Shown here: positions 1 to 13,257 of the stretch, piece after piece | Layout: each line of letters begins with the position of its first letter | Position numbering within the stretch: position 1 is the first letter of the stretch | Source of the DNA: a virus | Lineage: Duplodnaviria > Heunggongvirae > Uroviricota > Caudoviricetes | Strand: one strand, 5' to 3' | Length of the DNA: 13,257 nt | IMG/VR virus record: IMGVR_UViG_2703719354_000002 | Made by a program: the position numbers and the translations under genes | Notes under the pieces: model-generated | The model's input: the letters and a program-made list of their open reading frames with translations, nothing else | Told to the model about the DNA's origin: nothing | The model's database searches: none

Positions 1-995
1 AACGCAGCCTCTGCCTTAATCAGCATCTCCTGCGCGGTATCAGGACGACCAATATCCAGCACCGCATCCCACATGGATTTGAAGGCCCGCGCAGTCCTGT
101 CTGCCCAGGTCTCCAGCGTGCCCATGTTCTCTTTCAGGCGGCGGGTCTGGTCATCAAACCCTTTCGTTGCGGCCTCGTTCGCCGCCTGCAATGCCCCGGC
201 TTCATCGCCGGAACGCTGCAACTGAGCAACATACGCAATCTGCTCCGCCGTCACGTTATGGAACTGGCGTGCCATCGCCGTCAGCCCCGACGTCGGGTCT
301 GTGGTCAGCTTCCCGAAGGCTTCAGCGACCTTGTCCACCTCCACGCCGGATGCAGAGGAGAAACGCGCCACACTCTGGCTGATGGACGCAATCTGAGCCT
401 CACCGCTTACCCCCGCCTTAACCAGTGCGCTGAGTGACTCGCTGGTCTGGTTAAACGTCAGCCCTGCCGCCTGCCCGGCTCTGGACAGGACCAGCATACG
501 ATCTGCCGTCAGTCCCGCCTGATTGCCGGAAAGGACCAGCGTTTTGTTGAAATCGGACAGGGTTGAGTTGCCCTGATACCAGGCATACGCCAGCGCACCG
601 GTCGCCACCGCCAGCGAGGTGGCCCCCACCATCGGCAGGGTGATCGCACCGGCAAGCCCCCTGAACATGGGGATCATCCCGCCGAAGGAGTCCTTCACCT
701 GCCCCCCCTGTTGCAGCAGGATCAGCCACGGACTTTGCCCGCCTGCAAGCTGCGTGGCCACGTCGGTGAACTGTGCAGGCAGCATACGCATGGCGGCTTT
801 ATACTGCCCGACGGAAATCCCCGCTTTCTGTGCAGCCAGCGCCTGTCGGCTCAGCGACTGTTCAACGACTGCCGCTGTTTTTTTCGCATCACTTTCCGTA
901 CCGGAAAAATGACGCCTGACTCTGGCCATCTGCTCGTCAAATCTGGCCGCATCCAGACTTAAATCAACGACCAGATCGCCTACCGGTTCAGCCAT
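1..995 (-). CDS. H: Tail tape measure protein gpH, N-terminal ~331 codons; rest of the gene lies beyond the window start
   Basis: Reverse complement from the ATG at 993..995 translates to MAEPVGDLVVDLSLDAARFDEQMARVRRHFSGTESDAKK..., which I recognise as the lambda gpH N-terminus. Open to the window edge; sits directly downstream of T as in lambda. Not in the ORF track because it is truncated. Confidence 0.88.
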   Translation of the reverse strand, partial: MAEPVGDLVVDLSLDAARFDEQMARVRRHFSGTESDAKKTAAVVEQSLSRQALAAQKAGISVGQYKAAMRMLPAQFTDVATQLAGGQSPWLILLQQGGQVKDSFGGMIPMFRGLAGAITLPMVGATSLAVATGALAYAWYQGNSTLSDFNKTLVLSGNQAGLTADRMLVLSRAGQAAGLTFNQTSESLSALVKAGVSGEAQIASISQSVARFSSASGVEVDKVAEAFGKLTTDPTSGLTAMARQFHNVTAEQIAYVAQLQRSGDEAGALQAANEAATKGFDDQTRRLKENMGTLETWADRTARAFKSMWDAVLDIGRPDTAQEMLIKAEAA

Positions 996-1428
996 ACCGG
1001 ACTCCTCCTGCGATCCCTTCTGATACTGTCATCAGCATTACGTCATCCTCCGTCATGTCCGCCACATCCGGGGAAGCGGGGATAACTTCATTCCCGTCCG
1101 GGCCAAAGCGGACGCCTCCGGCAAGCCCTGCCGCTTTCTGCATCAGCACATCATCTTCAGGCTCTTCGTCAGCCTCACGCCGGTTCAGCAGACTGAAATC
1201 CAGCGGATGCATATCCGGATCGCTGAAAAACAGGCTGAGCACGGTGTACGTCAGCCCGGAAAAGTGCATATCCAGCAGAACATCATGAAAATAATGGGTA
1301 CTGTAAAAGCGGTGCCAGTCGGCATACTCCGTGGATGACATCCCGGCAAGCATGGCACGCCAGTCGGGTCGCCCCGTCTCGCGCGCCAGTTTCAGGGCAA
1401 AACTCAGCTCACCGTCGAACACTTTCCC
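988..1428 (-). CDS. T: T reading frame, expressed only as the gpG-T fusion (tail assembly chaperone) after a -1 frameshift from G
   Basis: Track ORF 988..1422 (...FDGELSFALKLARETGRPDWRAMLAGM...) is in the -1 frame relative to G and begins right at the slippery heptamer. Matches lambda gpT as recalled. Confidence 0.85.
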   Translation of the reverse strand, partial: GKVFDGELSFALKLARETGRPDWRAMLAGMSSTEYADWHRFYSTHYFHDVLLDMHFSGLTYTVLSLFFSDPDMHPLDFSLLNRREADEEPEDDVLMQKAAGLAGGVRFGPDGNEVIPASPDVADMTEDDVMLMTVSEGIAGGVRYG

Positions 1429-1826
1429 GCAGAAACAGGCTCTGCAGGCCCGGCGTCCTCTGCCTGTTCAGGGGCATCATTCACCACAAACTCATACATA
1501 CCGGACAGCCGGTACACCACGTTTTCAGCATGAGAAATTGCCTCTGTGGGCCAGGTGGTAAGCACTTCCTGCTCAATCTGTTTAACGGCTTCATTCATGG
1601 AAGGCTGCTTTGTCTTCTGCGGATGGTTATGCCACAGGGACATCGCCACCACAAAAGCACCGGTTCTGATGGCGTCTTCCACTGTAAACTTCCGGTTGCT
1701 GTCTGACTCCGCCTGTTCTGCCTGCCGTTTCATCAGGGCGAGATGCTCAATACGCTGCAGGGCTGAAAGTTCAGAAAGCGTGACGGTCACGCCGTTATGT
1801 TCAAATGATTCGGTTTTCAGGAACAT
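1404..1826 (-). CDS. G: Tail assembly chaperone gpG (140 aa)
   Basis: Track ORF of 140 aa (MFLKTESFEHNGVTVTLSELSALQRIEHLALMKRQ...). Length, position between V and T, and sequence match lambda gpG. Confidence 0.9.
   Translation of the reverse strand: MFLKTESFEHNGVTVTLSELSALQRIEHLALMKRQAEQAESDSNRKFTVEDAIRTGAFVVAMSLWHNHPQKTKQPSMNEAVKQIEQEVLTTWPTEAISHAENVVYRLSGMYEFVVNDAPEQAEDAGPAEPVSAGKCSTVS
1422..1428 (-). other. Programmed -1 ribosomal frameshift slippery heptamer G GGA AAG (G to G-T)
   Basis: Plus strand ctttccc is GGGAAAG on the minus strand, in phase X XXY YYZ with the G frame (..GCG GGA AAG TGT..), 6 codons before the G stop. Shifted frame reads GKVFDGELS..., the T frame. Confidence 0.85.
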
Positions 1827-1841
1827 CGCTGACTCTCCGGA

Positions 1842-2582
1842 TTAACTGTCGGTGACAGTGATTTCTGCAACCGCAGCAAGTTCACCATTACCGGATACGA
1901 CCGGAATGTTGACCTTGCCTGCAGCAACACCTTTCACGGTGATGGTCATACCACTGACCGACACGGTGGCTTTTGTTTTATCCGCAGACACCGCACGGAA
2001 GCTCTTGTCGGTTGCGCCTTCCGGCTGAAATGCCACGGTCAGCGTGGTGCTCTGCCCTTTCACCACCGAGGTGCTGGCAGGCGTCACGGTCATGCCGGTT
2101 GCCGCTGTGACCGTGCTGCGATCTTCTGCCATCGACGGGCGTCCCACATTGGTGACCTTCACCGTGCGGGTGATCACTTCCTTCGCCGTCACTGCTTTAC
2201 CGATACTGCTGACCCAGCCACGGAACACATCGACCGTGCCGTTCGGGAAGCGGATTTTATAGGCACGGGTATCACCTTCATTAAACCACGCCAGCAGCGC
2301 CTGCTGCCCCTGCTCTCCGGGCATCCACGCCAGCGTGAAGCTGGTATCTCCGGCTGATTTCTGCCCCTGCCCGGTCGCAGTCCAGTCCGCATCTTCATCA
2401 TCGAGATAGCTGTCGTCATAGGACTCAGCGGTCAGTTCGCCGGGCGTCAGGTCTTTAACTTTTGCCAGACGCGACCAGTCAACGTCTGAAAGCGGATTCG
2501 CATAAGGGTCACCGCTCCCCTTATAAACCCACAGGGTGGTCCCGGCACCTTTCACCGGCATTACAGGATTTGGTACAGGCAT
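1842..2582 (-). CDS. V: Major tail tube protein gpV (246 aa)
   Basis: Track ORF 1842..2612; the internal start [27 protein letters not shown]... at 2580..2582 gives 246 aa, the lambda gpV length. The C-terminal region is rich in T/V/S/G, consistent with an Ig-like domain. Confidence 0.9.
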
Positions 2583-2589
2583 AGCGTCC

Positions 2590-2985
2590 TCACATTTCAT
2601 AGGTAATGACATAAGTCAGATCGGCTGAACTCCACAGGCCCGCATCATCGTCGCGTCGGTAGTCATAGCCACTGGCCACCATACTGGTGATCAACTCTGA
2701 CAGTGCCGGGATATCGCTCATCACCGGATAAATCCGGGACTCCATCCACGCATCCAGCTCTGAATCCGGCACCTGAGCAGGCAGGAAAACTTCGATATGC
2801 AGCTCCGCCTGCCAGGTATCGCTGTCCAGCTCTTCGCCCGTGTATTCAGCGCCGGTGAGATAAACGGCAACTGCCGGAAAATCCGCCTCATCAAAAACAG
2901 CGGGGCGACCATCAAAAAACGTCGCCCCGGTGTCATGCTTCTCCAGTGCATCCAGTACGGCTGCACGGAGTTCAGTATGTTTCAT
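2590..2985 (-). CDS. U: Tail terminator protein gpU (131 aa)
   Basis: Track [36 protein letters not shown]...; length and position match lambda gpU. 4-bp overlap with the Z stop. Confidence 0.9.
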
Positions 2986-3560
2986 CGCTTTATTACCATC
3001 CTCAGTTGATGCTGCAGCGCATAGCCCAGCTCTTTCGGAAGACGTTCACGCCGTATCCGCTCAATATTTTGTTTAAACGCCGTGGTCAGCGGCACCGCCA
3101 TCGGGATTTTCACCACATCAATGGGGTAACGGTTTTTCCCGGCCACACGCTGCATAACATGCCACCGGCCATTTTTCAGTTGCTGAATAAACGCGCCGGG
3201 AATACGACGGTTACCCACCACAAGCACGCTGCCGCCACCTTTCAGGGATGAACGCTGCCCCTTTTTACGACGCCTGCGGCGCGAAAGGACAACCCGCGCA
3301 TTACCCAGCTTGATTACGGGCAAATCCCCCCGGTTAACCTTGATTCTGGCCTGCGGATTTTTGACCGTGGCCCTTTTCAGCCTGGCCCTTTCCTTTACCA
3401 GTTTCCGGCGTACCTTTGTCTCACGGGCAACCTGTGACACCGACTGCGATATCGCGGATGAAGCAACGCGGTTAATGGCCATTGCGGCGGCACCGGGCAC
3501 CGCCGTTCTGCTGATACGGCTGAGGTTTTCAACGGCCTGCTCAAGACCTTTTATGGCCAT
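2982..3560 (-). CDS. Z: Tail completion protein gpZ (192 aa)
   Basis: Track ORF MAIKGLEQAVENLSRISRTAVPGAAAMAINRV...; 192 aa as in lambda gpZ. Confidence 0.9.
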   Translation of the reverse strand: MAIKGLEQAVENLSRISRTAVPGAAAMAINRVASSAISQSVSQVARETKVRRKLVKERARLKRATVKNPQARIKVNRGDLPVIKLGNARVVLSRRRRRKKGQRSSLKGGGSVLVVGNRRIPGAFIQQLKNGRWHVMQRVAGKNRYPIDVVKIPMAVPLTTAFKQNIERIRRERLPKELGYALQHQLRMVIKR

Positions 3561-3925
3561 ACATCCCCCTTCCAGCGGCGACGGTTAACGGCAGGCGGTA
3601 CGCCCCGCCCAAGCCAGAGATGACAGCTTCCGCCATCATCCGGCGAAATCCGGTCTATCCAGAAGTTTTCCTCACCGATGGTCAGCGTGTCGCCGCGCCG
3701 CAGCTGCCGCACATCATCAGTCCGGACAAACAGGGACGGGCTGGAGCCTTCAACGCGCACGCCCTGTCCGGCATAGCTGATATTTTCAGGGTCATCAAAA
3801 ACACCACGTATCACAGCACCGGACTGCTCACCGGATGTCATGGTGGCTGACGTTCCCATGTACCCGCGTATCGTTTCATCGGCGCAGGCAATGGCAGCAT
3901 CGAACAGGTTATCGAAATCAGCCAC
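3551..3925 (-). CDS. FII: Head-tail connector protein gpFII (124 aa here; C-terminus overlaps the Z start)
   Basis: Track ORF MADFDNLFDAAIACADETIRGYMGTSATMTSGEQSG... matches lambda gpFII. The ORF reads on through ...NRRRWKGDVWP and ends inside the start of Z. Confidence 0.88.
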   Translation of the reverse strand: MADFDNLFDAAIACADETIRGYMGTSATMTSGEQSGAVIRGVFDDPENISYAGQGVRVEGSSPSLFVRTDDVRQLRRGDTLTIGEENFWIDRISPDDGGSCHLWLGRGVPPAVNRRRWKGDVWP

Positions 3926-3936
3926 AGCGCCTCCCG

Positions 3937-4332
3937 TTATTGCATTCTGGCCAGGCCGCGCTCTGTCATTTCAGCTGCCACACCGGCAGAGACACGGAAC
4001 GCCGTTCCCGGCAGCACAAATGCCACAGCCTCATCCCGCGTGGCGTGAAGTGCATCAGTATGCAGCGTCACCAGTGCCACAACCGTGACCAGATCAGCCG
4101 TATCAGTCACGGTATCCGGCTGCGCTGATACAACCTCATTTTCATGTCCGGTCAGCGCATTTTCCGGGCTGACAGATGTGTCCTGACCGGCAGCGTCATC
4201 CGTGTCATCAAGCTCCTCTTCCAGCTCTGCCACACGGAGTGCCAGTTCTTCTTTCGTCCCCGTCAGGCTGACATCACGGTTCAGTTGCTCACCCAGCACC
4301 TGAAGACGGGCAATCAGTTCATCTTTCGTCAT
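3937..4332 (-). CDS. FI: Head assembly / DNA packaging accessory protein gpFI
   Basis: The internal start MTKDELIARLQVLGEQLNRDVSLTGTKEELALRVAELEEELDD... (ATG at 4330..4332) of track ORF 3937..4371 matches lambda gpFI, with an acidic linker and conserved C-terminus ...GVAAEMTERGLARMQ. Confidence 0.88.
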   Translation of the reverse strand: MTKDELIARLQVLGEQLNRDVSLTGTKEELALRVAELEEELDDTDDAAGQDTSVSPENALTGHENEVVSAQPDTVTDTADLVTVVALVTLHTDALHATRDEAVAFVLPGTAFRVSAGVAAEMTERGLARMQ

Positions 4333-4373
4333 GGACTCCTCCACAGAGAGAAAATGGCCCCGAAGGGCCATGA

Positions 4374-5399
4374 TTACGCCAGTTGTACGGACACGAACGC
4401 ATCAGGGTCAGCCAGCAGCATCAGCGGTGCTGACTGAATCATGGTGAACTCACGCGCCGGATCGCCGGTGGTCACCCAGTTTTTCGGGTAGCGGGCAGAG
4501 GCGTTAATACCTTCGCGCTGTGCGTCCGCATCCTGAATGCAGCCATAGGTGCGCAGACCGCGTGCCTGAGTGTTCCCCAGCACCATCGTGTTGTCCGGAA
4601 GGAAGTTCTTTTTGACGTCGTTTTCCACGTACTGTCCGGAATACACGACGATCGCCGTATCGCCATACATCCCCTTATAGGACACCGCTTCGCCCAGGTC
4701 TTTTACCGCTGTCTCCAGCTCGGAATGAGAGCCGCGACGGGTATCCAGCTTCTCCTTGACGGCTTTGAAGGAACGGAACAGCGCCCAGCCTTTCGGATCA
4801 AACACGATGATATTCACCACACCGCTGGCGTTCAGCGCGTAGGCTTCGATATCGTCGGTCGGGTCATACGTGGACTTGTCACGCTTGCTCCACTCCGTAC
4901 CGCCGGACTGCGTGATGTTGTTCGCCACACTGCGGCCCATATCCACTTCAACCGGATCGAAGGCTTCACCGGTCATGGTGTATTTGCCCTTAAGCACGGC
5001 AGAAACTGCCTGCATCTCTTCGACCTGAGCAATGGCCAGCTCTTCGTCTCGCATGTTCTGCAGGATGATGCGACGGCGGCGGTAAGCCGGGTCCGCCAGA
5101 TTCTGTGGATCTTCATCCGGCAGGCGACGCAGGGTCATCTGCGGATTCACTTCATGCTTGGGTTTGACATATCCCGGCGTAAATTCAGAGGTGGAGCCGC
5201 CACGGGAGCGGATAACCTCACCGGAAACAATCGGCGAAACGTACAGCGCCATGTTTACCAGTCCCGGAATTTGTGAGAGATAGACTTTCTCCGTGGTGAA
5301 GGGATAGCTCTCACGGAAAAAGAGACGCAGAAACAGCGGATCAAACTTAAATTTCTGCTCATTTGCCGCCAGCAGCTGGGCGGTTGTGTACATCGACAT
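4374..5399 (-). CDS. E: Major capsid protein gpE (341 aa)
   Basis: Track ORF 4374..5426; the start MSMYTTAQLLAANEQKFKFDPLFLRLFFRESYPFTTEKVYLSQIPGLVNMALYVSPIVSGEV... at 5397..5399 gives 341 aa, the lambda gpE length and sequence. Confidence 0.92.
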   Translation of the reverse strand: MSMYTTAQLLAANEQKFKFDPLFLRLFFRESYPFTTEKVYLSQIPGLVNMALYVSPIVSGEVIRSRGGSTSEFTPGYVKPKHEVNPQMTLRRLPDEDPQNLADPAYRRRRIILQNMRDEELAIAQVEEMQAVSAVLKGKYTMTGEAFDPVEVDMGRSVANNITQSGGTEWSKRDKSTYDPTDDIEAYALNASGVVNIIVFDPKGWALFRSFKAVKEKLDTRRGSHSELETAVKDLGEAVSYKGMYGDTAIVVYSGQYVENDVKKNFLPDNTMVLGNTQARGLRTYGCIQDADAQREGINASARYPKNWVTTGDPAREFTMIQSAPLMLLADPDAFVSVQLA

Positions 5400-5413
5400 A
5401 AAAAAATCCCGTA

Positions 5414-5435
5414 AAAAAAGCCGCACAGGCGGCCT
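5414..5435 (-). terminator. GC hairpin followed by a U7 tract in the D-E intergenic spacer (terminator-like or attenuating RNA structure)
   Basis: Minus-strand RNA would read ..GGCCGCcuguGCGGCuuuuuuu. Plus strand shows gccgc(5421-5425) acag gcggc(5430-5434) preceded by aaaaaaa (5414-5420). It lies inside a late operon, so it is unlikely to be a fully efficient terminator. Confidence 0.4.
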
Positions 5436-5454
5436 TTAGTGATGAAGGGTAAGG

Positions 5455-5787
5455 TTAAACGATGCTGATTGCCGTTCCGGCAAACGCGGTCCGTTTTTTC
5501 GTCTCATCGCTGGCAGCCTCCGGCCAGAGCACATCCTCATAACGGAACGTGCCGGACTTGTAGAACGTCAGCGTGGTGCTGGTCTGGTCAGCAGCAACCG
5601 CCAGAATGCCAACGGCAGCACCGTCGGTGGTGCCATCCCACGCAACCAGCTTACGGGTGGCGGTGTCCAGCATCAGCGGGGTCATTGCAGGCGCTTTCGC
5701 ACTCAATCCGCCGGGCGCGGTTGCGGTATGAGCCGGGTCACTGTTGCCCAGCGGCTGGTAATGGGTAAAGGTTTCTTTGCTCGTCAT
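5455..5787 (-). CDS. D: Head decoration protein gpD (110 aa)
   Basis: Track ORF 5455..5793; the start [27 protein letters not shown]... (ATG at 5785..5787) gives 110 aa as in lambda gpD. Confidence 0.92.
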
Positions 5788-5796
5788 AAACATCCC

Positions 5797-6402
5797 TTAC
5801 ACTGGTGTGTTCAGCAAATCGTTAACGGCATCAGATGCCGGGTTACCTGCAGCCAGCGGTGCCGGGGCACCCTGCATCAGACGATCCAGCGCAGTGTCAC
5901 TGCGCGCCTGTGCACTCTGTGGTGCTGCGGCCAGAATGCGGCGGGCCGTTTCCACGGTCATACCGGGGGTTTCTGCCAGCACGCGTGCCTGTTCTTCGCG
6001 TCCGTGAGCCTCCTCACAGTTGAGGATCCCCATAATGCGGCTGTTTTCTGCCGCAACCGCTGCGGTGATCTGCGCGTTCACGTCCGGCTGCGCCGCGCTG
6101 GCGTTTTCGCCCTCCGTCGCTGGCACCACGTCAGTAACGTCAGCCTGCGAAGCAGTGGCTGAAACAGTTGTTGATTGAGTCTCTTTGGTCATTCGCCCTC
6201 CTGAGAGACGGGATTTACGTGCATCCAGTGCATCACGCATGACGGTGATCGCATCGGTGCTGTTAACAAGTTCATCAGCCAGTCCGGCATCAATGGCCTC
6301 CTGACCGCTGTACACTGCAGCCTCGGTATCCAGCACAGCCTGCACGGACAGGCCGGTATATGCCGACACCTTCTGCGCAAACATCTGGCGGGTTGCGTCC
6401 AT
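5797..6402 (-). CDS. Nu3: Scaffolding protein gpNu3 (201 aa), translated in frame from an internal start within C
   Basis: In-frame ATG at 6400..6402 gives MDATRQMFAQKVSAYTGLSVQ... and 201 aa sharing the C stop. This is the known nested C/Nu3 arrangement of lambda. Confidence 0.8.
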   Translation of the reverse strand: MDATRQMFAQKVSAYTGLSVQAVLDTEAAVYSGQEAIDAGLADELVNSTDAITVMRDALDARKSRLSGGRMTKETQSTTVSATASQADVTDVVPATEGENASAAQPDVNAQITAAVAAENSRIMGILNCEEAHGREEQARVLAETPGMTVETARRILAAAPQSAQARSDTALDRLMQGAPAPLAAGNPASDAVNDLLNTPV

Positions 6403-7096
6403 CCGGTACTGCAGTGTCTCCCGGACGTCATCCGGAAGATGGCTGTAGGGGTTGCCATCCACCTTATGGCTGCCGCTGTAAATCAGCGTGATTTCCACAC
6501 CCTGTTTCTCCAGCGCAGCACCGTAATTACTGTGAGCCATCATGACGCCGATGGAGCCTGTCCGGGCGGTCTGCGTGACCAGACGCCGGGAGGCGGCACT
6601 GGCAAGCAACTGACCTGCACTGCAGTTCATGTCGTTGGCAAGCGCCCATACCGGTTTTATGTCACGCACACGGGCGATGATGTCAGCGCAGTCAAATGCC
6701 CCCGCCACCATCCCGCCGGGCGTGTCCATATCGAGCAGAATGCCGTCCACCATCGGATCGCTGGCAGCCTGTTGCAGACGGGCGATAATGCCGTTGTAAC
6801 CGGTCATCCCCGAGTACGGCTGCAGCGCCCGCGTCCGGCTGACCAGCGTGCCGGACACCGGCAGCACGGCGATGCCGTTCATGACCTGATAACTGCGGGC
6901 CTGTCGTGGTCCGTCATCATCACCGGATAATGCCAGCGTCGCGAGTGCCTCCTGGGCAGTCAGGCTGTCGCCGGACACCGCATCCGTCAGGCGGCTGATC
7001 CCAAGCTGGCCTGCAAGCGCACAAAAGAAAACCCGCGCATAGGCGGGTTCAAGCATCAGCGGCTCATTAAAAGCCATGCTGGCAATATGCGGGAGA

Positions 7097-7116
<20 letters not shown>
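5797..7116 (-). CDS. C: Head maturation protease / scaffold gpC (439 aa, GTG start)
   Basis: Track ORF 5797..7251 contains the lambda gpC sequence starting at the residue translated V in VTAELRNLPHIASMAFNEPLMLEPAYARVFF..., codon GTG at 7114..7116. This gives 439 aa and a 20-bp overlap with the B 3' end, as in lambda. ClpP/SppA-like serine protease region present. Confidence 0.88.
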
Positions 7117-10797
<3,681 letters not shown>

Positions 10798-10823
<26 letters not shown>

Positions 10824-11343
10824 TCAGCAACCCCGGTATCAGTTCATCCAGCGCGGCTGCTTTGTTCATGGCTTTGATGATATCCCGTTTCAGGAAATCA
10901 ACATGTCGGTTTTCCAGTTCCGGAAAACGCCGCTGCACCGACAGGGGGATCCCGTCGAGAATACTGGCAATTTCACCTGCGATCCGCGACAGCACGAAAG
11001 TACAGAATGCGGTTTCCACCACTTCAGCGGAGTCTCTGGCATTTTTCAGCTCCTGTGCGTCGGCCTGCGCACGCGTAAGTCGATGGCGTTCGTACTCAAT
11101 AGTCCCTGGCTGGAGATCTGTCTCGCTGGCCTGCCGCAGTTCTTCAACTTCCCGGCGCAGCTTTTCGTTCTCAATTTCAGCATCCCTTTCGGCATACCAT
11201 TTTATGGCGGCGGCAGAGTCATAAAGCACTTCATTACCCTTGCCACCACCCCGCAGAACGGGCATTCCCTGCTCCTGCCAGTTCTGAATGGTACGGATAC
11301 TCGCGCCGAAAATGTCAGCCAGCTGCTTTTTGTTGACTTCCAT
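10798..11343 (-). CDS. Nu1: Terminase small subunit gpNu1 (181 aa)
   Basis: Track ORF MEVNKKQLADIFGASIRTIQNWQEQGMPVLRGGGKGNEVLYDSAAAIKWYAERDAEIENEKLRRE... matches lambda gpNu1: N-terminal winged-HTH, C-terminal gpA-binding tail, and a cosB immediately upstream. Confidence 0.95.
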
Positions 11344-11520
11344 TGTTCATTCCACGGACAAAAACAGAGAAAGGAAACGACAGAGGCCAAAAAGCTCGTT
11401 TTCAGCACCTGTCGTTTCCTTTCTTTTCAGAGGGTGTTTTAAATAAAAACATTAAGTTACGACGAAGAAGAACGGAAACGCCTTAAACCGGAAAATTTTC
11501 ATAAATAGCGAAAACCCGCG
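11344..11520 (-). promoter_or_regulatory. cosB, lambda-type terminase small-subunit binding region (R1, R2, R3 with an AT-rich IHF-like spacer)
   Basis: Three GGAAACG-core elements at about 11371..11384 (aaggaaacgacaga), 11409..11423 (inverted, ctgtcgtttcctttc) and 11471..11482 (aacggaaacgcc), with an AT-rich segment at 11437..11465 between R3 and R2. Reverse complement matches the lambda left-end sequence with a few substitutions. Confidence 0.85.
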
Positions 11521-11532
11521 AGGTCGCCGCCC
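11521..11532 (-). other. cosN copy 1: 12-nt cohesive-end sequence (GGGCGGCGACCT on the phage strand)
   Basis: Plus strand aggtcgccgccc is the reverse complement of the lambda cohesive end GGGCGGCGACCT. Flanked by a lambda-like left end on one side and lambda-like right-end DNA on the other. Confidence 0.9.
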
Positions 11533-11731
11533 CGTAACCTGTCGGATCGCCGGAAAGGACCCGCAAAATGATAATAATTATCATCTACATGTCACAACGT
11601 GCATCTACGCCATCAAACCACGTCAAATAATCAATTATGACGCAGGTATCGTATTAATTGATCTGCGTCAACTTAACGTAAAAACAACTTCAGACAATAC
11701 AAATCAGCGACACTGAATACGGGGCAACCTC
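11533..11731 (-). other. Phage right-end (cosQ-containing) DNA adjacent to cosN, lambda-like with substitutions
   Basis: Reverse complement reads ...GAGGTTGCCCCGTATTCAGTGTCGCTGATTTGTATTGTCTGAAGTTGTTTTTACGTTAAGTTGA..GCAGATCAATTAATACGATACCTGCGTCATAATTGATTATTTGACGTGGTTTGATGG...GGTCCTTTCCGG.GATCCGACAGGTTACG, which matches the lambda right terminus as recalled with scattered mismatches. Homology to lambda stops near 11731. Confidence 0.75.
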
Positions 11732-11926
11732 ATGTCAACGAAGAACAGAACCCGCAGAACAACAACCCGCAACATCCGCTTTCCTAACCAAATGATTGAA
11801 CAAATTAACATCGCTCTTGAGCAAAAAGGGTCTGGGAATTTCTCAGCCTGGGTCATTGAAGCCTGCCGTCGGAGACTAACGTCAGAAAAGAGAGCATATA
11901 CATCAATCCAAAGTGATGATGGATGA
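11732..11926 (+). CDS. Small (64 aa) ribbon-helix-helix-like putative DNA-binding protein, copy 1
   Basis: Track ORF MSTKNRTRRTTTRNIRFPNQMIEQINIALEQKGSGNFSAWVIEACRRRLTSEKRAYTSIQSDDG: basic N-terminal arm, a short beta-strand-like NIRF, then two helices split by a KGSGN loop, typical of the Arc/MetJ/CopG fold. It may belong to the small YlcI/YnfO-like proteins found next to cos in E. coli lambdoid prophages, but that is from memory and unverified. Confidence 0.6.
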   Translation: MSTKNRTRRTTTRNIRFPNQMIEQINIALEQKGSGNFSAWVIEACRRRLTSEKRAYTSIQSDDG

Positions 11927-12074
11927 ACATCCCGGTTTCTTCCACCATCGCACCGGAAAAGCGACTATGAGGGTAACCCTGCGTCTGTCAGCACAGTAAA
12001 ACCCGGTGTGCATCGTTTTTGATTATTCCCGCACACTCACGCAGAAGGAATTCCCCGTCGGGCTACGGTCATGG

Positions 12075-12488
12075 TTAATGCGGGAATACGGCGACGATAC
12101 AGCGCAAAAACTGTCGCTGCATGGATAAAGGGATGGAATCAAGCGTACTGGATAACGCCATTGCCAGCTTACTGAGGGCAAAAATACAGAACCCGGTGTC
12201 AATAAGTTTTCCTTTTGACACCTCATTTTTTAACTGCTGTGTAACAGCCTGTTCTGCTGTCAGTTCCCATCTGGCAATAAGCAATTTCTCCTCATAGTCG
12301 TCTTCGCTATCGCCATCAGGCACATCGTTTTTACTTCTCCTCAGATACGATATGTAAAAATCGCGCCAGGCATCCAGATCCAGTTGCCCTCGCTTATTCG
12401 ATATCGGGGCACCCGGCAATTTCTGCAATCTGCGAAGCTGGCGATCGGTCAGACTTAAATGCCTGGCAACTTCAGTCTGCGTAGCCAC
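12075..12488 (-). CDS. Divergent, C-terminally truncated Nu1-like small terminase paralogue (137 aa, GTG start)
   Basis: Track ORF MATQTEVARHLSLTDRQLRRLQKLPGAPISNKRGQLDLDAWRDFYISY...DTGFCIFALSKLAMALSSTLDSIPLSMQRQFLRCIVAVFPH. Compared by eye with this window's own Nu1, the winged-HTH pattern and the central block align (ETAFCTFVLSRIAGEIASILDGIPLSVQRRF vs DTGFCIFALSKLAMALSSTLDSIPLSMQRQF), but the protein ends 9 aa after that block. GTG start at 12486..12488 preceded by GAGGTGAGGAG. Confidence 0.65.
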   Translation of the reverse strand: MATQTEVARHLSLTDRQLRRLQKLPGAPISNKRGQLDLDAWRDFYISYLRRSKNDVPDGDSEDDYEEKLLIARWELTAEQAVTQQLKNEVSKGKLIDTGFCIFALSKLAMALSSTLDSIPLSMQRQFLRCIVAVFPH

Positions 12489-12535
12489 TCCTCACCTCGC
12501 AAAAACTCTCACCTCACAATCACAACAAAACCGGT

Positions 12536-12634
12536 CATGTCCGGTTTACATGTCTGTTTTTTGTTCATGTCCGGTTCACAGAAGACCTGTTTTTATATTT
12601 TTCATATAGTTAACTTGAAGAGATACCGGACATG
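12536..12634. repeat. Three copies of the 9-bp motif CATGTCCGG (two direct, one inverted; 30 and 60 bp apart) between cosN copy 2 and the Nu1-like gene
   Basis: catgtccgg at 12536..12544 and 12566..12574 on the plus strand; ccggacatg at 12626..12634. It occupies the position where cosB sits relative to the first cos. Confidence 0.6.
12590..12620 (-). promoter_or_regulatory. Candidate sigma70-like promoter for the Nu1-like gene (weak -35 TTCAAG, 16-nt spacer, -10 TATAAA)
   Basis: Minus strand reads ttcaag-ttaactatatgaaaaa-tataaa. Judged by eye only; the -35 is a poor match. Confidence 0.25.
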
Positions 12635-12671
12635 GATCCCGGAAAATTTTCATAAATAGCGAAAACCCGCG

Positions 12672-12683
12672 AGGTCGCCGCCC
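12672..12683 (-). other. cosN copy 2, identical 12-nt cohesive-end sequence
   Basis: Second aggtcgccgccc, exactly 1151 bp from the first, inside the second repeat copy. Same right-end flank and the same 33 bp of left-end flank as copy 1. Confidence 0.85.
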
Positions 12684-12882
12684 CGTAACCTGTCGGATCG
12701 CCGGAAAGGACCCGCAAAATGATAATAATTATCATCTACATGTCACAACGTGCATCTACGCCATCAAACCACGTCAAATAATCAATTATGACGCAGGTAT
12801 CGTATTAATTGATCTGCGTCAACTTAACGTAAAAACAACTTCAGACAATACAAATCAGCGACACTGAATACGGGGCAACCTC

Positions 12883-13077
12883 ATGTCAACGAAGAACAGA
12901 ACCCGCAGAACAACAACCCGCAACATCCGCTTTCCTAACCAAATGATTGAACAAATTAACATCGCTCTTGAGCAAAAAGGGTCTGGGAATTTCTCAGCCT
13001 GGGTCATTGAAGCCTGCCGTCGGAGACTAACGTCAGAAAAGAGAGCATATACATCAATCCAAAGTGATGATGGATGA
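12883..13077 (+). CDS. Small ribbon-helix-helix-like protein, copy 2 (identical to 11732..11926)
   Basis: Track ORF with an identical 64-aa translation; lies within the second repeat copy. Confidence 0.6.
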   Translation: MSTKNRTRRTTTRNIRFPNQMIEQINIALEQKGSGNFSAWVIEACRRRLTSEKRAYTSIQSDDG

Positions 13078-13257
13078 ACATCCCGGTTTCTTCCACCATC
13101 GCACCGGAAAAGCGACTATGAGGGTAACCCTGCGTCTGTCAGCACAGTAAAACCCGGTGTGCATCGTTTTTGATTATTCCCGCACACTCACGCAGAAGGA
13201 ATTCCCCGTCGGGCTACGGTCATGGTTAATGCGGGAATACGGCGACGATACAGCGCA

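Follow-up and report, generated by a model that had tools for sequence, protein, structure and literature searches.

Results

Two cos sites at one end of a lambda-type prophage sequence

The window, by which we mean the whole 13,257-nucleotide stretch of Caudoviricetes DNA that was analysed (IMG/VR record IMGVR_UViG_2703719354_000002), follows the lambda map order on its minus strand, with the tail and head genes, the large terminase gene and Nu1 reversed across positions 1-11343. From 1 to 12106 it is collinear with natural lambda-type prophages (99.8%), and those prophages continue from there into Iss/Bor. The lambda cohesive-end sequence, GGGCGGCGACCT, is present twice on the minus strand, at 11521-11532 (copy 1) and at 12672-12683 (copy 2), and both occurrences are exact in the sequence comparison. 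In lambda numbering, bp n corresponds to window position 11533-n for copy 1 and 12684-n for copy 2. The features of the region are:

10798..11343, minus strand: lambda-type small terminase Nu1, 181 aa, the cognate of cos copy 1 (full-length match to Pfam Phage_Nu1, E 5.5e-101)
11368..11483, minus strand: lambda-type cosB of copy 1 (R1 11368-11383, R2 11409-11424, I1 11442-11454, R3 11468-11483)
11488..12106, minus strand: repeat R, copy 1 (flank 11488-11520, cosN overhang 11521-11532, cosQ heptamer 11556-11562)
11732-11926, plus strand: DUF3950/YlcI gene in repeat R copy 1
12075..12488, minus strand: terS' remnant, 137 aa (BLASTP 127/127 to WP_000235436; Pfam Phage_Nu1 E 3.8e-11)
12106..12108, no strand: unique junction between the end of R, an extra A (12107) and codon 127 of terS', located by sequence comparison
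12531..12634, minus strand: cosB' of copy 2 (R1' 12536-12544, R2' 12566-12574, AT-rich spacer, R3' 12626-12634)
12634..12639, no strand: GGATCC hexamer at the edge of the conserved flank, native to this type of cos (L001, L005 and 13 natural variants)
12639..13257, minus strand: repeat R, copy 2 (flank 12639-12671, cosN overhang 12672-12683, cosQ heptamer 12707-12713)
12883-13077, plus strand: DUF3950/YlcI gene in repeat R copy 2

An earlier note on this DNA described copy 2 as a hybrid cos that keeps cosN and 33 bp of lambda-type flank and then switches abruptly to novel sequence. All of its coordinates are correct, including that of GGATCC (12634-12639), and the two copies do share exactly 33 bp on the cosB side (11488-11520 and 12639-12671, lambda bp 13-45), with no extension at the left. 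The shared stretch is not confined to cosN and these 33 bp, however, since identity runs 586 bp further on the cosQ side. The full repeat, R, occupies 11488-12106 and 12639-13257 (619 bp, 100% identity, period 1151), and it stops at 13257 because the window ends there. Copy 1 of R is also 100% identical to positions 6532-7150 of L001, a prophage of E. coli O145. The note was silent on the 1151-bp tandem unit with its shortened terS' and on the tandem junction that is unique to this window.

The heptamer GGGTCCT at 12707-12713, which we take to be cosQ, has the same spacing in copy 2 as in copy 1, as expected of a lambda-like cosQ, and records of phage 434 annotate cosQ under the matching stretch. 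The DUF3950/YlcI gene (phrog_949) adjoins cosQ inside the conserved repeat and moves with cosQ-cosN in both types of phage.

To the left of the shared flank the two copies are unrelated. Copy 1 continues into lambda cosB and Nu1, with R3 at lambda bp 50-65 and an IHF site, I1 (11442-11454), that is one mismatch from the IHF consensus. Copy 2 continues into GGATCC and a set of CATGTCCGG boxes. The sequence comparison bears out the view that copy 2 has cosQ and cosN and is without lambda-type Nu1 sites, the switch falling before lambda R3: the two sequences are unrelated beyond bp 45, and copy 2 has none of the R boxes of lambda specificity, CGTTTCC(G/T)TTCTT.

Boxes of cosB' in copy 2

Three exact copies of CATGTCCGG are present next to copy 2, at 12536 (+), 12566 (+) and 12626 (-). 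A copy with one mismatch, at 12531-12539, overlaps R1' and forms a near-palindrome. Over the whole window, CATGTCCGG has 12 matches with at most one mismatch against 4.25 expected, a number reached in 0 of 200 shuffles. In lambda-equivalent positions R3' is at bp 50-58, R2' at bp 110-118 and R1' at bp 140-148, so that R3' lies inside the span of lambda R3 (bp 50-65) and the boxes are placed where R3, R2 and R1 are in lambda. R2' and R1' are approximately 60 and 90 bp past R3' and inverted relative to it, across an AT-rich spacer. Copy 2 therefore has the three related R boxes, with R3 near bp 50-65, that characterize a lambda-like cos, in an orientation pattern that is unlike that of lambda.

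The three boxes are constant in 13 distinct natural variants, in which the flanking spacers vary. The spacer between R3' and R2' is conserved and AT-rich with A-tracts. A scan for the IHF consensus WATCAANNNNTTR with up to one mismatch found no site in cosB' between R3' and R2', and the same scan finds lambda I1 in copy 1. A literature search for the box sequence returned only unrelated p53 papers.

The small terminase gene next to cosB'

Residues 1-127 of the terS' remnant are those of a natural 169-aa small terminase (WP_000235436), and after them come 10 foreign residues encoded by R. The natural protein's last 42 residues (128-169) are missing. Both forms belong to the Nu1 family (Pfam PF07471, cutoff 30), with 43.3 bits for the remnant and 67.9 bits for the natural protein, and the latter also has a full-length match to phrog_57 (terminase small subunit; E 1.7e-55). 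TerS' and Nu1 are 47% identical over residues 73-164 only; their N-terminal regions are unrelated in sequence. The C-terminus of natural TerS' aligns with the tail of Nu1, and in lambda the C-terminal ~40 residues of TerS bind TerL (PMC9026076).

In 18 of 18 natural sites with a terS ORF, B-type cosB' (the type with CATGTCCGG boxes) is directly followed by the gene for its cognate small terminase, which begins MATQTEVARHL..., and this type of TerS is found behind no other cosB. The gene is truncated at residue 127 in the window. In related phages, the N-terminal ~68 residues of TerS' and cosB are replaced together, and the C-terminal part and the large terminase are kept. A recurrent mosaic boundary is found within the small-terminase gene at ~6176 of L001 (TerS' residue ~68; also L010, L031, L088, L091 and L104), and the retained C-terminal part and large terminase are ~92% identical.

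A single-sequence structure model of TerS' has a mean pLDDT of 59.5 (blocks reach 72-80 in residues 1-50 alone) and places helices at residues 4-10, 15-22 and 38-52. The modeled N-terminal helices resemble the lambda layout and are at most suggestive of a winged helix-turn-helix. The best fold matches of this weak model are MerR-type regulators (E 0.08 or worse) and RppC (E 1.2), none of them reaching E 0.001, and a sequence search of solved structures with TerS' gave nothing significant.

Copy 2 in natural prophages and phages

Contrary to the earlier note, the sequence that begins beyond the 33 bp is not novel. Window positions 12108-13257 match positions 6001-7150 of L001 at 99.9% identity, the copy-2 junction, CCGGACATGGATCCCGGAAAATTTTC, is native in that prophage, and the sequence is common in E. 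coli: a query spanning the copy-2 region is covered to at least 80% in 268 of the 5,426 complete E. coli genomes. The temperate phages PhiR12_1 to PhiR12_5, which have been isolated, match at 97.0% over a 538-bp query and at 95.9% over a wider local alignment of 628 bp. The natural gene order is head genes, large terminase, 169-aa TerS', cosB', cosN, cosQ and DUF3950/YlcI. The PhiR12 phages and the prophages of E. coli O145, O103 and relatives (L001, L002, L005) resemble the window in cos, cosB' and terS' (96-99.9%), and differ from it in having one cos only, a full-length terS' (169 aa), and large-terminase and head genes of their own.

These comparisons establish the identity of the site, its natural distribution, the architecture of its boxes and the pairing of the boxes with one type of TerS. 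Copy 2 is also not a lambda cos stripped of cosB; its cosB is complete and belongs to a different lambda-like packaging specificity, equipped with R boxes and a terS of its own. By sequence, copy 2 is the ordinary packaging site of a second, widespread family of lambda-like E. coli phages. It is thus not the result of cloning, nor does it represent a new kind of element. This B-type cos is common in databases, and in the literature searched we found neither a description of it nor an experimental test of its specificity.

GGATCC is part of the natural site

The position of GGATCC, a BamHI site, exactly at the breakpoint could indicate that copy 2 is an engineered or cosmid-derived cos joined to the lambda-type sequence through that site. 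We consider this extremely improbable. GGATCC is unchanged in 13 of 13 natural variants, which come from prophages, isolated phages and satellites. Prophage genes flank the site on both sides, and there is no cloning vector among the plasmid-collection matches listed over the B-type part, which are large E. coli records with a terminase small subunit. Vector-derived DNA in the flanks, the finding that the earlier note had said would count against its reading, was not found. Because there is no vector sequence and the junction is native in natural prophages and phages, we discarded a cloning-vector origin and regard GGATCC as part of the natural site.

Plasmid records of Bacillus, Paenibacillus, Alicyclobacillus, Stenotrophomonas and other genera are also among the matches. 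In the one listed, HM037272 (Bacillus thuringiensis), the match is limited to 62 bp around cosN (100%). Such matches outside E. coli look like vector or lambda contamination of the records.

The breakpoint is a recurrent module boundary

The earlier note had suggested asking whether the breakpoint recurs in related phages. It does, and the exact copy-2 junction, with GGATCC, is native to prophages and to isolated phages. In a set of 120 public viral contigs with the cosN core, five or more unrelated types of cosB adjoin one and the same conserved flank: 61 loci have the lambda type, 25 the CATGTCCGG B-type and 17 a CATGTCGG type, and two further types are rarer. Further cosB types in these contigs retain only about half of the conserved flank. 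Since at least five types of cosB adjoin the same flank, the breakpoint is a recurrent natural module boundary. In lambda, R3 spans bp 50-65 and the spacing from cosN to R3, and thus to cosB, is critical (PMC9026076), which accounts for every type of cosB beginning at the same base.

Comparison with lambda, 21 and N15

The lambda cos consists of cosQ, cosN and a cosB with R3-I1-R2-R1, bound by Nu1. Copy 2 has the same 12-nt cohesive end, the same cosQ heptamer and spacing, and the same 33-bp segment between cosN and R3 as lambda. Sites of its type also have three repeated boxes, the first at bp 50, and a small-terminase gene that starts ~195 bp from the end. They differ from lambda in the box itself (CATGTCCGG rather than CGTTTCC(G/T)TTCTT), in its orientation (R3' faces one way and R2' and R1' the other; in lambda, R2 alone is opposite to R3 and R1), in that no IHF consensus was found in cosB', and in a TerS whose N-terminal region is unrelated in sequence.

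In the loci collected here, CATGTCGG-type cosB pairs with another TerS N-terminus and not with B-type TerS. The TerS behind CATGTCGG-type cosB is presumably 21-like. Judged by its boxes copy 2 is not lambda-specific, and judged by its TerS it is not of the CATGTCGG type.

Packaging starts at cosN and cosB and ends at cosQ and cosN (PMC4669245). Phages 21 and N15 have cosQ and cosN as in lambda, and their specificity resides in cosB and in the recognition helix of TerS; lambda and 21, with identical cosQ and cosN, discriminate more than 1000-fold through cosB and TerS (PMC4669245). The B-type resembles 21 and N15 in that cosB and the DNA-binding domain of TerS are exchanged as a module (PMC4669245), and it is unlike them in having a different box and a different TerS N-terminus. 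Copy 2 thus looks best filed as a further lambda-like packaging specificity beside lambda, 21 and N15.

The tandem junction

The arrangement of the two cos copies in the window is another matter. A 101-bp query across the junction at 12106..12108 was covered to at least 80% in none of the 5,426 complete E. coli genomes. The junction 33-mer had no exact match in viral, genome or metagenome contigs, and a junction 19-mer had only chance matches in unrelated taxa, without extended homology. The fused 137-aa protein is not on record (protein look-up), and the tandem was not seen at the places with the exact portal protein in long NCBI contigs (protein in 423 blocks). As the junction is known nowhere else, the arrangement may exist in no cell. 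We see the balance between a biological junction and an assembly join as close to even.

The junction falls on the last base of R, which ends in GATACAGCGCA, and in copy 2 that base is also where the window ends. At this base, the GCGCA boundary, natural lambda-type, O145-type/B-type and PhiR12 genomes part ways, with Iss/Bor, Rha and Rz contexts beyond it. Mosaic joints recur at the right edge of R (window 12106 and 13257; L001 7150; L004 16106; L005 ~4815), and the unique junction of the window is a fourth continuation after it, beside at least three natural ones. Around the other side of the junction, position 6001 of L001, where terS' breaks, there is no mosaic boundary in 30 related loci, the recurrent ones being at ~6176 and ~6145. 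The left end of the window has no common mosaic boundary and is therefore uninformative.

A single cause, namely sequences stopping at the edge of a repeat, would explain why both the junction and the end of the window fall on the edge of R. The tandem would then be an artefact of assembly or concatenation, in which two prophages with the 619-bp R in common, one lambda-type and one B-type, were misjoined or the repeat was wrongly resolved; no cell would have two cos sites 1151 bp apart, and copy 2 would still be a real B-type cos elsewhere in the same genome. We give this reading slightly less than an even chance. The coincidence of the junction with the base at which the natural genomes diverge speaks for it, as do the complete identity of the two R copies, the absence of the junction from the 5,426 genomes and three contig collections and of the fused protein from the record, and the abundance of R in E. 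coli, where an 801-bp query spanning R (window 11900-12700) is found at a median of 2 places per genome, and at 11 at most. However, the end of R and terS' position 6001 share no k-mer that could give a false edge in an assembly graph, position 6001 is not a mosaic boundary in the 30 related loci, and the extra A is left unexplained.

The tandem could instead be real, left behind as a passive relic when two resident lambda-like prophages recombined, and with no function of its own. Such a relic could have arisen by deletion between tandem prophages, or by integration of a circularized B-type fragment through homology in R. Both parental modules occur at 99.8-99.9% in natural E. coli, and such strains hold many lambda-like prophages. 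The GCGCA boundary already has at least three natural right-hand partners, so novel joints do survive there; EDL933 has a differently truncated copy of the terS' region (only 80% of the query covered), and a shortened terS' is what a random joint would be expected to leave. Against this, an illegitimate joint would have to hit the exact base of an existing mosaic boundary, the contig would have to end on that base too, and there is no second example in any collection searched. A relic is a serious possibility, although we hold it to be somewhat short of even odds.

Two further features of the region were noted. An imperfect 8-bp inverted repeat (ATACAGCG ... CGCTGCAT, 7 of 8 positions) brackets the junction at 12097-12122, and could be due to chance or be tied to the origin of the joint. 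An IS3-family element is present in R, between the DUF3950 gene and the right edge, in L138, L141, L142 and L143 (5442-6655 in locus coordinates), which are the closest complete-genome relatives of the lambda-type part; the window is without this insertion. We rejected an IS element at the edge of R as the cause of the contig break, as the IS in close relatives is inside R, ~160 bp from its end.

Satellites with two cos sites

Two inverted cosN, 521-864 bp apart, are present in 6 of the 120 viral contigs. These are EcCICFT073-type islands and carry an integrase, a primase, a lambda-E-like capsid gene and a decoration gene. We rejected the idea that these double-cos satellites are the published capsid-forming islands, which package via HNH-TerS-TerL. 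In CFT073 (L126, NC_004431, 7040-7800), cos1 is followed by rppA and then by an inverted cos2 with a complete B-type cosB'. Like copy 2, EcCICFT073 cos2 (minus strand at 7790) has GGATCC, R3', the spacer, R2' and R1'. Unlike copy 2, it is not followed by terS', and its position is downstream of rppA, in the opposite orientation to cos1. Satellites L007, L014, L041 and L074 also have a B-type cosB' at cos2. In L029 (2363-3243) and L017 (3796-4676) the second, inverted cos has a CATGTCGG-type cosB, and a Nu1-family protein of 180-184 aa is encoded between the two cos sites. With CATGTCGG-type cosB in some islands and B-type cosB in others, the second cos of the islands varies in step with known phage cosB types.

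EcCICFT073 cos2 has been shown experimentally to be a functional cos; no phage cosB had been recognized in either cos of the island, and the reason for two cos sites was raised as a question (PMC6092414, PMC6739421). We suggest that cos2 may be a helper-type cos for B-type (PhiR12-like) phages, used without Rpp.

Satellites of this kind, with two cos sites that differ in cosB and one of them B-type (PMC6739421), raise the possibility that the tandem in the window is both real and functional, with a co-resident B-type terminase also packaging the lambda-type prophage or the tail-less TerS' redirecting packaging in an Rpp-like manner. We find this very improbable. The arrangement is conserved nowhere, the last 10 residues of the 137-aa protein are out of context, the product of a random joint, and the protein has no significant similarity to RppA (E 0.057). 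In addition, the cos pairs of satellites are inverted and not direct, and a direct tandem would be lost at the first lytic cycle. It is, if anything, more doubtful still that a real tandem is a phage counterpart of the EcCICFT073 two-cos strategy, providing a second, B-type initiation site, with a TerS' remnant that might interfere as Rpp does. We had also considered the remnant as an Rpp protein in its own right and rejected this on similarity (BLASTP against CFT073 RppA aligned only 29 residues, at E 0.057) and on location, as it lies in a lambda-type prophage context and not in an island between cos1 and cos2.

Discussion

Overall, the observations are best explained if cos copy 2 is the complete, native cos of a second class of lambda-like packaging specificity, the B-type, and we think it likely that it is. 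B-type phages would keep the parts of cos that are read by the large subunit, that is cosQ, cosN and the 33-bp spacer that sets the distance between cosN and R3, as lambda, 21 and N15 do, and would replace cosB, the part read by the small subunit. The packaging behavior of copy 2 is inferred throughout. By analogy with Nu1, the N-terminal domain of TerS' would bind the CATGTCCGG boxes and position the large subunit to nick cosN.

Of such a phage, the window carries just a 1,151-bp fragment. It consists of a single extra base, 127 terS' codons, cosB', cos and the DUF3950 gene, and is attached head-to-tail at the cos region of a lambda-type prophage that is ordinary in other respects. The B-type large terminase is absent from the window. 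Because of this, and because the tail of terS' (42 residues) is lost, copy 2 would be unable to start packaging here alone. Should the tandem be real, the published rules for cos (PMC4669245) predict that lambda-type terminase would initiate at copy 1 alone and terminate at copy 2, where it would first encounter cosQ-cosN. The 1.15-kb unit would thus be lost from virions, which would have a single cos, and would be kept in the prophage only.

The unique junction is a warning that double-cos structures in draft assemblies need support at the level of reads. The site is one more illustration of how lambda-like phages retain cosQ and cosN while exchanging cosB along with the DNA-binding domain of TerS, and in itself this finding matters little. 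The CATGTCCGG cosB and its TerS are nevertheless common in prophages of pathogenic E. coli and are available in the culturable PhiR12 phages. If EcCICFT073 cos2 is indeed a helper-type cos for B-type phages, this would provide a simple answer to the question of why some EcCICFT073-type islands have two cos sites.
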